Assembly (NCBI GenBank): GCA_038889075.1
Contig: JAWAHS010000012.1
Location: forward strand, 1-45,148
Reading direction: 5' to 3'
Source of the DNA: Ignisphaera sp.
GTDB lineage: Archaea > Thermoproteota > Thermoprotei_A > Sulfolobales > Ignisphaeraceae
DNA: 45,148 nt
The notes beneath the pieces were generated by a model that had not been told where the DNA came from, ran no database searches, and saw only the letters and a list, made by a program, of their open reading frames with translations. Position numbers and translations under genes: made by a program. Within the stretch, counting starts at the first letter, position 1; each line of letters begins with the position of its first letter. This document shows, piece after piece, positions 44 through 44,892 of this stretch.

Positions 44-328
44 AACCTCACAACTCCGTACGGAGGTGAAAAATATGACATTGCTCCACTCGAGGAGCTG
101 GTGAGGATATACCAGATCTACAAGCTAGAAAACCAGGTTAACTACAAGCTGAGTAAACGAGACCTCAAGCGAATAGTCAAGATGCTAGCCGAAGAAGTAG
201 TTAACTTTCTAGTAAAGCAGGGATGCGGGGGGTGGGATTTGAACCCACGCAGGCCTATGCCATCGGGTCCTGAGCCCGACCCCTTTGACCTAGCTCGGGC
301 ACCCCCGCATTATCTATATAGTAGGTAG
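44..328 (+). pseudogene. Probable SSV-type integrase N-terminal fragment (intN) reading antisense into tRNA-Leu
   Basis: The open frame (…KYDIAPLEELVRIYQIYKLE…KQGCGGWDLNPRRP) runs antisense through the tRNA 3' half, which is the geometry of partitioned SSV-type integrases. IAPLEELVRIY resembles the recalled intN motif (VGPLxxVVxxY). In-frame stops at 35-43 truncate the N-terminus. Confidence 0.45.
224..308 (-). tRNA. tRNA-Leu (anticodon CAG), no intron, CCA not encoded
   Basis: Reverse complement GCGGGGGTGCCCGAGCTAGGTCAAAGGGGTCGGG-CTCAGGA-CCCGA…GGTTCAAATCC…CCCCCGCA folds as a cloverleaf with a long variable arm. Confidence 0.97.
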
Positions 329-651: not shown

Positions 652-846
652 GGGGTTCAGCTCTGATATGGGTTTGTATTGGTTGGCTTCATCGCCTCAT
701 CTCTTTTCCTCTGCATCGGTCTTGGGTCTGCATCGCCCTTGGAGGTGTTTAGGGCGACCCCGGGCACCCCACATCTTGAGCATCTTGGGGAGAGCCTTCA
801 TCTAGAGCATCACAGCGGCTCTCGAACCCCTCATCGAGACCATTTC
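652..846 (-). ncRNA. Structured K-turn-rich ncRNA / tnpB 3'-end (omegaRNA-like) remnant, copy A
   Basis: TATA-like TTATAAATA at 876-868; stem GAGAGCC/GGCTCTC; several GATGA/GATG motifs. Core CAAGATGTGGGG…AGACCGATG…GCTGAACCCC is collinear with 21838-21963. Confidence 0.6.
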
Positions 847-1004
847 CACGTACCACTACGCATAGAGTATTTATAAGCGTTTCTATCAATATCAACCGAT
901 GCGAACAGATATGAAAACCGAAACAGTTGCACAAGGCTACACTCTCTTCATTGATGTGCTTCACACCTTAACTATATTCTAGATACGATACCAGATCTAG
1001 GTAG

Positions 1005-19349: not shown

Positions 19350-19535
19350 GCTTTGGATGGTGATGGGAGCAGTGATCCAAGCTACCTAGGGCTACCTGTA
19401 GATGGGAGCTGTATTCTATTCGGCTTGACAGCCGCCCACGGATCCACAGGGATTACACAAATTCAATCAATGAACAGATATGAAAAACGAAACAATTGCG
19501 CAAGGCGGAAGTCCCTAGATATGAATAAACATTAA
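19350..19535 (+). ncRNA. Structured ncRNA / tnpB 3'-end remnant of a second lineage, copy D
   Basis: TATA-like TTTATATT at 19333; stems TTGGA/TCCAA with internal TGATG…GTGA, CCTGTAGAT/ATCCACAGG and CTAGGG/CCCTAG. Translation (…VDGS…GLTAAH…ARRKSLD) resembles recalled crenarchaeal TnpB C-termini. Confidence 0.45.
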
Positions 19536-22437: not shown

Positions 22438-22747
22438 GCCATCTCTACTATTTAATAGGCCTCTGAGACCTATGTTTCTATCAGTGCATCTTAGGCGTGT
22501 GGAGGAGTACTGTGAAAGCCTTTTCAATAGAAGGCGAGCTCTTTTGTAGCCCGTTTGAGAGCAACTGTTGGGTGGTAGATGGTGGCTCATTTATTTATAT
22601 CAATTTTCAGTTTCTCTACCATGTGCTGAGAAACGGTACGGCTACAAGATGGTGGTCAGCATGAAACTTGGAACAATTTTGTGAGGCGGTATTTCATATA
22701 GGTAAGGGTTTTTATTTTGATTGGAGGTGTATTAACTTTGGTGCTAT

Positions 22748-41741: not shown

Positions 41742-42263
41742 GTGATAGAGGGTTGTAGTGAATTGAAGGTGTATCTAGTAGCATATGCTCCCACGAGTCC
41801 TCAGAGGCTAGTTGATCTAGCGAAGGTTGCATATTCAATTAATATTGTTAAAGGCTTTGTAGTTATAAAACCTATTGGTGTAGCTGCACAGGTAGGTGTA
41901 CCAGAGGCTTTTAGAATTGCCTATAAATTGGGCAAGAGCTTCCTTGTTCTATCCCATATTAATGAATTGAAAGAACTCCTAAATATAGATAACATTGTAT
42001 TTATAGTCCAGAGCTTAAAGGAAGCTGATGATATTAGTAAACTAATGCACAGGATAGAGAATAGCGTTGCAGTAGTAGTTCAGGCAGGTGAGACGCCCTT
42101 TTCAAAGGAGGATCTATCGAATGGCTATATAGCTAGGGTAGAGGAATTCGATGACAAACTTTCACCTAACGCTGTAGCAGAGGCCACAGCCTCTCTACTT
42201 AAGATCTACTCATATTTACAGATGTGTGGAAAACCACATCAAGGTAGTAGTGATATTAATTAA
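41742..42263 (+). CDS. DUF2122 family protein (annotated RecB-family nuclease; SPOUT-like pattern)
   Basis: SPQRLVDLAKVAY…GVAAQVGVPEAFRIAYKLGK matches the recalled family consensus. Confidence 0.75.
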   Translation: MIEGCSELKVYLVAYAPTSPQRLVDLAKVAYSINIVKGFVVIKPIGVAAQVGVPEAFRIAYKLGKSFLVLSHINELKELLNIDNIVFIVQSLKEADDISKLMHRIENSVAVVVQAGETPFSKEDLSNGYIARVEEFDDKLSPNAVAEATASLLKIYSYLQMCGKPHQGSSDIN

Positions 42264-42326
42264 AAATTGGAGATGCATTGAACAAATTCTCAATACAGCA
42301 ATTATTAGCCTCACACAACTGTTTCA

Positions 42327-42615
42327 GGTTTCATATAGGTTTATAAGGGTTGATGGTGGTTGTTTTACTGTTTGAGCCCATCCACGATGTGGGTGTATGG
42401 TAAAGACCCAAGTGGATGAGTACTCAAAGCCAGGATGTGGGGGTTTCCCCACAGCTGTGAACCGGAACCATATGAGGGGGAGCTGTGGGTAGGGGTTTCC
42501 CCGAAGGGGTGGAGACCGATGACATGGGCACCGATGAAAGGTGCCCCAAGGTCGATGAAACCAAGGGTCGAGATCAAACAGCATCAACCAACATGAAACC
42601 CAAACCCCGTCAACC
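42327..42615 (+). ncRNA. Large multi-K-turn structured ncRNA / MITE-like element, copy C
   Basis: Nested inverted repeats GGTTTCAT/ATGAAACC, GGTTGATG/CATCAACC, CTGTTTGA/TCAAACAG; inner stems CATCCAC/GTGGATG and CCCACAGCT/AGCTGTGGG; GATGAA-loop hairpins. Shares GATGTGGGG, AGACCGATG and AAACCCC with copies A/B. Confidence 0.6.
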
Positions 42616-42682
42616 ACTTTCCTATTCACGGTAAAACTAATTATAGTTGCTTAATAAAATGCTGTAATAAGTAGTAAGTATA

Positions 42683-44335
42683 GTGAGGATAGAGATATTG
42701 GATAAGGTAATGGTTATCGATGCTAATGCTAGAGGTAGAGGAAGGAGATTTTCAACACTAGATGTTATAGGTGTTGGTCCACGTCTTATAGTATCTCTAC
42801 TGAAAAGCTATGGTCTATACGCTGATCTGATGCCCTATGAGGTATTTGTTAGAGACCCTAGTATTGCTAAAGAATTCGATGTTCTAGCGATATCCTATAT
42901 GGTGAGCGATGTCGTAGCTGTGAAAAAGGCTATAGAGATTTGGCGTAAGCTTAATAGGGATGGTATTGTTGTTTTGGGTGGTCCAGGTACACTCGATACC
43001 GATACATTAACGGAGCTAGATTTTGATCTAGCCTTTAAGGGAGAGTCCGAGGTCACCCTCGATAATATCTTCAGCAGGTATCGGAGTCTATATGATGTTT
43101 TACATGGTGTTAGGGAGCAGGAAATACAGCCAGGGTTGGTTGTAAAGCTATCTGGTAGAAGGTTAATCGATGGAGGGATAGGATGCTGGGTACCGAGGGA
43201 GTTGATCAACAGAGTGATGCCGGATGTGGATAGTGTTACAAAGTATCCATTCTACTGGGCATCTAGGGTGTATGTAGAGGTTGTTAGAGGTTGCAGTAAC
43301 TTTTATAGACCTGTTTTAGCGGCTGGTGCCTCCTGTCTAGGTTGCAACATATGTAGGTCTGGTAATCTTAGTTCAAGAATTAGATGTCCCATTGGAATAC
43401 CGCCTGGATGTGGATATTGTAGTGTTCCAGCAATACACGGACCAGCACGTTCTCGCGAGATGGATATTATAGTTAGGGAGGTAAAAGCTCTCATAAAAGC
43501 AGGTGTTACAAGGGTTGTTCTTAGTGCTCCTGATTTTCTCGACTATGGTAGAGATTTCCTTGTAGACGATCTACTGACTGATCCGTGCAATCCAAAGCCA
43601 AATGTGGATGCCATTGATAGACTTTTACATAGCCTTACCTCTATTACGGAGGTTGCTGAGGGGGGTGCTACAATCTCTATTGAAAATGTTAAGCCGTGTC
43701 TCGTAACGGAGGAGGTTGCCGAGATTCTTGGTAGATATCTTAAGGATTCGGTGGTATATATTGGTGTTGAGAGCTGCAGTGATAGGCTTTTAAAATCTAT
43801 TGGAAGACCATCGATGTATAGCGAAAGTCTTAAGGCAATAGAACTTCTATCCAAATATGGTCTAAGACCATATGTATATTTAATGCATGGACTTCCATCC
43901 GAGTGTGATGAGGATATAAAGAGCACCCTAGCTTGCATTGACATATTTAGATCCCTTGGTGTGGAAAAAATAGTGTTATATAGGTTTACACCCCTTCCAT
44001 ATACAGCCTTCAGTAGTTCTCCAAGACCAGAGCCAGCTGTATCGAATCCTATTAAGGCCATACTCTATAGAAGTGTTACGAATTTTAATAGGGATCGGAA
44101 GTACGGATTGCTAAATAGGGTTATAGATGTGGTTATAGCTGCTAGGTATAGGGATCCACGCTACCTAGTATCCTATCCTCTGAGGCACGGTCCGGTAGTG
44201 CTCATTAGAGCATCTAAAAACTTCATAGGTACTATAGCAACCATTCGTGTAACAGGTGTTAAAAGCGATAGACTTGTTTATGGTGAGCTCATCTATGTTA
44301 AAAAGAGGTTAAAACCTAGACAGCATATACAATAA
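42683..44335 (+). CDS. Radical SAM protein with N-terminal B12-binding-like and C-terminal TRAM-like domains
   Basis: VVLGGPG, KGESE, VEVVRGC…GCGYC, ARSR, IGVESCSD, YLMHGLP; C-terminal beta-rich domain. Confidence 0.88.
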   Translation: MRIEILDKVMVIDANARGRGRRFSTLDVIGVGPRLIVSLLKSYGLYADLMPYEVFVRDPSIAKEFDVLAISYMVSDVVAVKKAIEIWRKLNRDGIVVLGGPGTLDTDTLTELDFDLAFKGESEVTLDNIFSRYRSLYDVLHGVREQEIQPGLVVKLSGRRLIDGGIGCWVPRELINRVMPDVDSVTKYPFYWASRVYVEVVRGCSNFYRPVLAAGASCLGCNICRSGNLSSRIRCPIGIPPGCGYCSVPAIHGPARSREMDIIVREVKALIKAGVTRVVLSAPDFLDYGRDFLVDDLLTDPCNPKPNVDAIDRLLHSLTSITEVAEGGATISIENVKPCLVTEEVAEILGRYLKDSVVYIGVESCSDRLLKSIGRPSMYSESLKAIELLSKYGLRPYVYLMHGLPSECDEDIKSTLACIDIFRSLGVEKIVLYRFTPLPYTAFSSSPRPEPAVSNPIKAILYRSVTNFNRDRKYGLLNRVIDVVIAARYRDPRYLVSYPLRHGPVVLIRASKNFIGTIATIRVTGVKSDRLVYGELIYVKKRLKPRQHIQ

Positions 44336-44804: not shown

Positions 44805-44892
44805 GCGGGGGTGCCCGAGCCAGGTCAAAGGGGTCGGGCTGAGGACCCGATGGCATAGGCCTGCGTGGGTTCAAATCCCACCCCCCGCACCA
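44805..44892 (+). tRNA. tRNA-Leu (anticodon GAG), CCA encoded
   Basis: GCGGGGGTGCCCGAGCCAGGTCAAAGGGGTCGGG-CTGAGGA-CCCGA…GGTTCAAATCC…CCCCCGCA-CCA; TATA-like TTATAAAA at ~44751. Confidence 0.97.

Follow-up and report, generated by a model that had tools for sequence, protein, structure and literature searches.

An intergenic 298-bp repeat of Ignisphaera is very probably a gene-less derivative of an IS607-family element that keeps a guide-RNA-like module

Introduction

What is the GC-rich, hairpin-rich island that separates a DUF2122-type gene from a radical-SAM gene in the archaeon Ignisphaera sp.? We addressed this question in a 45,148-nt stretch of its genome (contig JAWAHS010000012.1 of assembly GCA_038889075.1, positions 1 to 45,148, forward strand), which we call the window and whose positions are used throughout. 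A first-pass annotation, made from the letters alone, had placed an element of about 290 nt at 42327-42615 and offered two readings of it: a novel non-coding RNA (ncRNA) scaffolded by the protein L7Ae through several K-loops, or a miniature inverted-repeat transposable element (MITE) built from the end modules of a tnpB transposon. The second reading proved right: both ends are homologous to those of an insertion sequence (IS), the element is multi-copy, and it has a precise empty site. It is almost certainly a non-autonomous MITE derived by internal deletion from an IS607-family IS of about 2 kb. To the fuller account developed below, in which the MITE would also carry its own guide-RNA gene for TnpB, we give a probability of roughly 60%.

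Results

The element is a multi-copy repeat with sharp boundaries

We searched the element's own genome (1.95 Mb in 25 contigs, completeness 99.58%) with a 306-nt query and found 11 matches. Sensitive BLAST and alignment with flanks resolved six near-full copies including the window copy, on contigs C12, C4 (two copies), C1, C2 and C17, which are 78-92% identical. A further copy on C6 is internally deleted, and there are fragments besides. The boundaries are identical from copy to copy, with the start GCC-T and the finish ...AAACCCC. The flanking DNA is unrelated among copies, and no target duplication was found in the flanks of eight of them. A unique ncRNA gene was thus not borne out: the sequence is a multi-copy 298-bp repeat, and homologues, whose absence had been named as a reason to abandon the element, are abundant. 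Copy alignment together with the empty site (see below) gave an inserted length of 298 bp and ends at 42309-42608 including both flanking CC copies, with G42308 as the flanking base; the extent proposed earlier was wrong and is corrected accordingly.

The ends and the right module come from an IS607-family element

Both halves of the element have counterparts in a tnpA-tnpB element on contig C5. Its first 46-48 nt are 93-94% identical to the left end of that element, and nt 123-300 (about 180 nt) are 92% identical to the DNA directly behind a 445-aa TnpB open reading frame (ORF; PF07282, E 7.8e-15). The left-end match lies 3.2 kb upstream of the right module, before an ORF with a MerR-type helix-turn-helix (HTH) and a Resolvase domain (PF00239, E 8.5e-18; PF12728). 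Element positions 74-107 match within tnpB of the C5 copy and of a copy in genome G003, in the part that codes for the zinc finger, and the alignment shows that the element has lost about 75 nt of the parent just after the zinc-finger hairpin. Intact parents of about 2.0 kb are present in the relatives G008 and G038, where tnpA (200-209 aa) overlaps tnpB (420-437 aa) between the same ends. The C5 TnpB aligns with the solved ISDra2 TnpB (8H1J, E 2.5e-6) over the RuvC/zinc-finger part. Judged by these homologies, the element is the left end, the zinc-finger hairpin and the tnpB-3'/right-end module of an IS607-family IS. The ORFs that overlap it are all relics of at most 101 aa, it has no transposase gene of its own, and the 53-codon relic listed in Table 1 has no Pfam match.

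Descent from a PATE (palindrome-associated transposable element) of the IS200/IS605 type was considered and rejected. Because the Y1 transposase domain PF01797 has 0 matches in this genome at its completeness of 99.58%, the element is not of that type; in addition, the parent carries a serine recombinase.

We compared the right modules of MITE and IS copies in alignment A1, which holds 30 right-end modules from 8 genomes (22 MITE and 8 IS copies). In the genome of the window and in G003, G005 and G008, MITE right modules are 83-93% identical to those of full-length ISs of the same genome, versus 68-82% to those of MITEs of other genomes. This same-genome closeness suggests repeated MITE birth or concerted evolution with the resident IS.

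Three details of the parents are recorded here. The C5 copy is the one copy of this genome that bears a tnpA, and this gene is interrupted by an insertion with a 376-aa ORF that has no Pfam match (locus L009 2157-3287, +). The C5 tnpB frame (L009 477-1814, -) passes the last base of the element and stops in the flank, and the G008 and G038 frames stop inside; because the frames end on either side of the boundary, the C-terminal tail of TnpB is probably not constrained at the protein level. By eye, the TnpB of the intact G008 copy (locus L051 414-1727, -) reads ...GLEMNRQK... at the place of ...LELDRQ... in C5 and G038, a change from D to N that is a possible loss of a RuvC aspartate.

The inverted repeats are phased motifs in the two ends

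The first-pass annotation had described three nested, perfect 8-bp inverted repeats that close the element. They are present (Table 1), and long-range inverted 8-mer pairs are enriched: the element has 4, versus a mean of 0.37 in 1000 dinucleotide shuffles, 39 of which have three or more. What looks like nested inverted repeats is a set of phased GGTTK motifs that both ends carry, spaced by about 10-11 bp in the left one. There are no terminal inverted repeats; the imperfect inverted repeat is subterminal and begins at a distance of 20 nt from the tip on the left and 8 nt on the right. By analogy with characterised IS607-family ends, the GGTTK/TGTTT motifs are predicted binding sites of the serine transposase.

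The CC at 42607-42608, which terminates the element, is the second copy of the core. The terminus ...AACCCC recurs, single substitutions aside, in all 41 sequences of alignment A2, which spans the order and was fitted to our covariance model R1, so that it is biased towards structure. On the left, GCC stands before 22 of the 26 left ends that were recognised among 93 pattern hits in the genome, and it also precedes left ends in other genera. By comparison with studied TnpB systems, GCC would be a candidate transposon-adjacent motif (TAM) or target motif. The right end finishes CCC-C and differs from it at the -3 position. In the full-length C5 copy, the tnpA start codon follows TTTATAA at a distance of about 35 nt. 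MITE copies from several genomes and genera retain this TATA-like box as GTTTATAAG.

Table 1. Coordinates of the element's features in the window
Feature	Position	Strand	Description
GCC at left end	42308-42310	+	CC 42309-42310, one copy of the 2-bp crossover core; G, conserved flanking base
Left end	42311-42375	+	GGTTK/TGTTT motifs from 42320, 42327, 42338, 42348, 42358, 42369 (tip positions 13, 20, 31, 41, 51, 62)
Inverted repeat 1	42327-42334 with 42593-42600		GGTTTCAT with ATGAAACC
TATA-box-like TTTATAA	42340-42346	+	predicted promoter pointing into the RNA module
Inverted repeat 2	42348-42355 with 42582-42589		GGTTGATG with CATCAACC
Inverted repeat 3	42368-42375 with 42574-42581		CTGTTTGA with TCAAACAG
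5' hairpin	42372-42427	+	from the zinc-finger-coding part of tnpB
Omega-RNA-like scaffold	42429-42608	+	3' end of tnpB plus right end; 191.8 bits with covariance model R1
Relic ORF, 53 codons	42435-42596	+	remnant of the TnpB C-terminal tail; translation MWGFPHSCE...WRPMTWAPMK parallels TnpB C-terminal tails
Scaffold helices	42448-42455/42482-42489; 42492-42495/42499-42502; 42508-42510/42560-42562	+	
Scaffold helices	42514-42517/42550-42553; 42526-42532/42540-42546; 42568-42573/42582-42587	+	the last is a weak 3' hairpin
K-turn-like motif	42514-42553	+	C stem 42514-42517/42550-42553; bulge 42518-42520; G42521 A42522 opposite A42548 A42549
Right end	42555-42608	-	inverted GGTTK motifs from 42606, 42600, 42589, 42580, 42562 (tip positions 3, 9, 20, 29, 47)
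Downstream flank	42609-42628	+	would provide the guide part upon read-through of the right end, following the TnpB model as the consulted literature describes it

Other pieces with similar ends lie elsewhere in the window. At 653-937 (-) stands a member of another MITE family that is built in the same way: a left end of the same type, with a TATA-like box, is joined to a different right module. The genome has at least nine near-full copies of this family, whose 3' half has matches immediately behind two other tnpB genes (C1:444705-444843 and C9:16875-17007). It probably corresponds to the repeats that the first-pass annotation had called copies A and B. Two isolated left-end-like pieces at 19472-19506 (-) and 22661-22687 (-) read GCC, six further nucleotides and AATTGTT..., and no right module could be recognised with them; either truncation of elements or chance may account for these pieces.

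A precise empty site points to a recent insertion

One 3267-nt contig of sequencing run X17 joins 42308 to 42607 and skips 298 nt. The skipped stretch begins and ends with CC, which makes 2 letters of the joint ambiguous, and the joint shows no target duplication. Over about 1000 nt the contig differs from the window by 11 letters and one gap (about 99% identical). Because the joint skips 298 nt with CC at both ends, we read it as the trace of a 2-bp crossover core, exchanged without duplication. Contigs of three DNA runs (X1, X7 and X8) run from each flank into the element and represent the occupied form.

Removal of the element at the RNA level was considered as an explanation of the joint and is disfavoured. 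The flanks at 42308/42607 are non-complementary. Because inspection against the general definition of the bulge-helix-bulge motif revealed no such pairing, and no group I intron model matches, the joint is read as a DNA polymorphism, that is, as a strain without the insertion.

The first-pass annotation had suggested looking for an empty site in relatives, and this was done. In G012, G009 and G014, which are genomes of the same genus, the DUF2122-type and radical-SAM genes are adjacent without the element between them, and the gap measures 64-153 nt versus about 480 nt here. No element matches were found at these three loci, either in the intergenic regions or in the element search. The exact target was not found in them, as the flank BLAST aligned the gene ends only and the intergenic regions are too diverged. 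The insertion here is recent and, because it is absent from the relatives and from a near-identical strain, it is not a fixed regulatory part of the locus.

Run X17 alone also contains five back-joints, which lead from 42608 or 42540 to 42379, 42383, 42428 or 42434 with 1-8 other letters between; no back-joints of 42379-42608 were found in the three DNA runs. Their sides are short and the likeness threshold was 85%, so that they may be artefacts or stem from the elements of other organisms; they might also reflect circular or permuted RNA.

The right module has a covarying, guide-RNA-like fold

We searched the window for known RNA families. At the gathering thresholds of Rfam just two tRNAs passed in the whole window, none of them on the element; at E values up to 10, the region 42100-42800 gave two chance-level matches to long ncRNAs, nothing relevant and no group I intron. 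The reported absence of RNase P and signal recognition particle RNA was therefore confirmed, as no Rfam family matches the element. Other features read from the letters alone also held: the 7-bp hairpin GGGCACC/GGTGCCC at 42526-42532/42540-42546, the 9-bp pair CCCACAGCT/AGCTGTGGG, and the GC enrichment (0.545-0.60 within the element versus 0.355-0.38 in the flanks). The first-pass annotation had also counted folding no better than shuffled sequence as a point against the element. In this respect the single sequence is not clearly better than shuffles: the folding energy has a z of -1.73 on the + strand (5 of 100 shuffles as good) and of -2.56 on the - strand, and the structure is carried by covariation alone.

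Where a copy is full-length, the module comes after the zinc-ribbon region of TnpB, overlaps the end of the ORF and stops at the last base of the element. RNAalifold on A1 gave 28 pairs, and 9 of these show compensatory changes. When a 40-pair structure was laid on A1, 89.3% of the cells were paired versus 35-51% in slid controls, both-sided changes were found in 51 cells versus 9-16, and 0 of 500 shuffles attained the covariation score. The score is similar for a variant that forms a local hairpin at the 5' end. For A2 the corresponding values were 92.7% versus 35-49% and 123 versus 8-25 cells; here both-sided changes affect 21 of 36 pairs, and again 0 of 500 shuffles scored as high. G-U pairs are frequent and consistent only with the tnpB-sense strand. 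The outer stem of the 5' hairpin varies, and by eye its pairing is kept (CCCAC/GTGGG, TCCAC/GTGGA, CCTC/GAGG).

How widespread is the module? A covariance-model search had been proposed for this family, and we ran it with R1. The model matches 11 places in the genome of the window and, among the genomes sampled in the order, 50 of 121, which represent 24 of 52 genera. Several genomes have at least 21 matches and one (G099) has 51; at four aligned loci of the latter, the module lies at the 3' end of the tnpB coding sequence. A scan of named genomes with the 16-mer right terminus returned mostly chance bacterial matches among those listed; of the loci listed, R1 matched 16 of 18 archaeal ones and 0 of 6 bacterial ones. 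Among the matches listed, the records that R1 recognised are titled Desulfurococcaceae, Desulfurococcales, Sulfolobales, Thermogladius and Stygiolobus, plus one metagenome-assembled genome of Nitrososphaerales. The last (locus L136 149-316, +) scores 70.1 bits and lies outside the sampled order.

We then classified 20 loci in other genera: five are deletion derivatives, seven are linked to tnpB, and eight are unclear or cut off. The five derivatives have differing junctions, with the left end 62, 81, 115, 115 or 167 nt before the module, and the whole module of about 190 nt is kept. Because all five derivatives, with their distinct junctions, retain the entire module and only a short left part, the RNA may matter to the MITEs themselves.

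The proposed K-loops are not borne out, but a K-turn-like motif lies at another place in the fold

A K-turn consists of a canonical stem, a 3-nt bulge, tandem G.A/A.G pairs and a second stem; in a K-loop, tandem sheared G.A pairs close a terminal loop of several nucleotides. Measured against this general definition, the proposed GATGAAA K-loops fail on inspection: a 7-nt loop on a 7-bp Watson-Crick stem has no room for both tandem G.A pairs and a loop. The proposed mini-hairpin GGT-CGATGAA-ACC is not kept in the relatives of A1, by eye. Its GGTC pairs instead with GACC at 42514-42517, and its ACC with an upstream GGT at 42508-42510.

One K-turn-like motif is conserved in the fold (Table 1). 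In A2 the bulged strand has GA in 39 of 41 sequences, the other strand has GA in 37 and AA in 4, among them this copy, and the C stem shows both-sided changes at 3 of its 4 pairs. In this genus the second stem is broken by two unpaired bases, and the 2n position is A in the window copy. Copies of family f13 have a canonical version with a continuous, covarying stem. L7Ae binding at the motif is putative; a structure of L7Ae bound to a K-turn with A at 2n is described in PMC3985660. The text of an RNA immunoprecipitation sequencing study of L7Ae (PMC5539422) contains none of the transposon terms looked for in it, and a limited search of the literature, which is no proof of absence in print, found no K-turn in TnpB RNAs.

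Two tRNA genes bracket the window

The window carries one 85-nt tRNA gene near each end, at 224-308 (-) and at 44805-44889 (+). Both have a long variable arm, and they are nearly identical, with differences in the anticodon loop.

Discussion

Proposed mechanism and the points against it

We propose the following account of the MITE. A serine transposase supplied in trans would bind the GGTTK motifs and pair both ends. Strand exchange at the CC core would then yield an excised circle, which could re-insert at (G)CC. From the putative TTTATAA promoter of the left end, transcription would begin near 42370, where the 5' hairpin has its foot, cross the scaffold and extend into the flank by about 20 nt. 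A TnpB encoded by a full-length copy would load this RNA. Once the MITE has been excised, TnpB would cut the restored site, recognised by GCC and the guide match, and recombination would restore the MITE.

Several observations weigh against this account. Both Resolvase matches in the genome are truncated (the C5 tnpA and an 87-aa fragment) and no intact serine transposase is present; for this reason, the copies may be stranded here. The joined form of the site occurs only in X17, an RNA-labelled library, and all three DNA runs compared hold the occupied form. As to use of the RNA, all four runs compared are assembled contigs whose depth and ends are uninformative on transcription; that X17 covers the element does not establish its transcription, since contig depth sums many elements and organisms. 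The putative motif GCC is only 3 nt long and C-rich, and the tested IS607 TnpBs use G-rich TAMs of 4-5 nt. The + strand of this copy does not fold clearly better than shuffles; it has A instead of G at 42548 and, in our own reading of the columns, just 3 of 6 pairs in its 3' hairpin. Finally, the covariation could have arisen in full-length ISs, with the MITEs inheriting it without a function of their own.

This last point leads to the alternative that fares best. The MITE may once have been mobile and now be dead, its RNA module no longer transcribed or used and its fold merely inherited from the full-length IS by young copies. The lack of an intact transposase in this genome fits such a state, as do the deviations of the window copy in the K-turn-like motif and the 3' hairpin. 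The module is moreover 92-93% identical to the resident IS module, hence young, and contigs tell nothing about expression. Three observations speak for a module still in use. In 5 of the 20 loci of other genera the full module survives despite differing junctions. The second copy on C4 differs from its sisters on both sides of a hairpin (GGCCTCC/GGAGGTC versus GGGCACC/GGTGCCC). The TATA-like box is present in all aligned MITE copies. We regard the dead-element explanation as possible but unlikely and lean slightly towards a MITE RNA that is still made and used by TnpB.

Could the host have put the insertion to use? An outward promoter or the RNA might affect the radical-SAM gene, or the RNA might guide a nuclease-dead TnpB as a repressor. 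The element and the radical-SAM ORF do share a strand, with the element 75 nt upstream and its TATA-like box directed towards that gene; domesticated TnpB regulators are described in the literature consulted; and the G008 TnpB has, by eye, N for D in its LDRQ motif. Co-option is nevertheless very improbable, as neither relatives nor a near-identical strain have the insertion, which is thus recent, copies sit at unrelated loci, and the flank-derived guide has been linked to no other target. That the locus is a stand-alone, non-mobile cellular ncRNA gene scaffolded by L7Ae, as the first-pass annotation offered in one of its two readings, is hardly credible, for its status as a structured, GC-rich island between genes of an AT-rich genome and its K-turn-like motif are outweighed by multiple copies, transposon ends, homology to the ends of a tnpA-tnpB IS, a precise empty site and absence from the orthologous site in relatives; the K-loops described for it are absent.

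Comparison with known systems

IS607-family ends have no terminal inverted repeats; they carry an imperfect inverted repeat unequally distant from the tips, and short direct motifs (PMC6188088). IS1535 has four helically phased 9-bp motifs 20-60 bp from its left end, which TnpA binds cooperatively, and the family has GG at both tips and in the target without duplication (PMC6188088). The parent described here shares with IS607, IS1535 and ISC1926 of Sulfolobus islandicus a serine-recombinase tnpA with an N-terminal MerR-type HTH, and a tnpB; the likeness to ISC1926 is one of family description. The element itself shares the subterminal inverted repeat, the phased motifs, the 2-bp core and the lack of target duplication. 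It differs in having no genes and in a core that is CC on the tnpB-sense strand, in contrast to GG in IS607 and CboIStron.

Gene-less elements that keep two ends and a guide-RNA module are known as PATEs, from the IS605 elements of Geobacillus stearothermophilus (PMC10055086) and from CdiIStron (bioRxiv 10.1101/2023.11.20.567912). PATEs often encode omega RNAs that are necessarily used in trans (Meers et al., PMC10055086), and for them, as for our element, dependence on TnpA and TnpB in trans is proposed. In contrast to it, they belong to IS200/IS605, with a Y1 transposase, single-strand hairpin ends and a TAM of 4-5 nt, whereas here a serine recombinase would act on double-stranded DNA.

A further parallel is CboIStron, the IS607-family IStron of Clostridium botulinum, for which an engineered mini-element consisting of left and right ends only is excised precisely by TnpA in trans (bioRxiv 10.1101/2023.11.20.567912). 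Its TAM, TGGG, contains the core, and its scaffold ends in UCGG (bioRxiv 10.1101/2023.11.20.567912). Our element resembles it in a putative TAM that includes the core dinucleotide, in a scaffold that ends in the core, and in a -3 base that differs between TAM and right end (here G in GCC versus C in CCC). Unlike our element, which has no Rfam match and a putative GCC, CboIStron is bacterial, with a TGGG TAM and a group I intron. Re-cutting of the empty site by TnpB, which restores the element, has been shown for bacterial IS605 and IS607 elements (PMC10055086; bioRxiv 10.1101/2023.11.20.567912).

For bacterial IS607 TnpBs, the right-end element RNA (reRNA; RAGATH-18-derived) was tested with the TAMs AGGAG or GAGGG (PMC11061315). 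Like our module, this is a structured RNA downstream of, and overlapping, tnpB, and it guides cleavage beside a TAM that flanks the left end. The two differ in that no Rfam family matches our element, even at E up to 10. In the text of PMC11061315, "K-turn" occurs 0 times and "kink" 3 times. An archaeal TnpB of the IS605 type, with the TAM TTTAA, has already been characterised.

SMN1 is a 320-bp MITE of Sulfolobus islandicus that is mobilised by an ISC1733-type transposase (PMC3718332). Compared by description only, it resembles our element in being non-autonomous, in its length of about 300 bp, in having as host a related archaeon that is likewise hyperthermophilic, and in its dependence on the transposase of an IS of about 1.7 kb; it may be a named relative. 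ISC1733 is of the tnpA-resolvase/orfB type.

Taken together, the element is of a kind already known. We file it so because gene-less omega-RNA derivatives have been described for IS605, and the ends and the TnpB/guide function of IS607 elements have been studied in bacteria. The C-rich core and flank motif and the K-turn-like element may be new details.

What the element means

The analysis removes a false lead, as the element is no new housekeeping ncRNA. Repeats of this sort, when left unannotated, break assemblies and mimic novel RNAs. The module is common (50 of 121 sampled genomes), has a well-supported fold and lacks an Rfam model; the alignment and structure given here can serve to annotate such repeats. 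IS607-type elements of hyperthermophilic archaea give rise to gene-less derivatives that hold a whole guide-RNA module, and they offer a candidate TnpB/guide pair from a thermophile whose C-rich flank motif is unusual. A more far-reaching and rather unlikely picture is that the guide scaffold of this archaeal IS607/TnpB lineage carries a conserved box C/D-like K-turn, through which the host protein L7Ae would be an integral part of the TnpB ribonucleoprotein at high temperature. In this picture the MITEs would be self-promoted guide-RNA genes, a tnpA promoter fused to the scaffold, and a second layer of parasites that draw on full-length elements for TnpA as well as TnpB. At the least there is now a concrete K-turn candidate, and it could connect L7Ae to RNA-guided nucleases.

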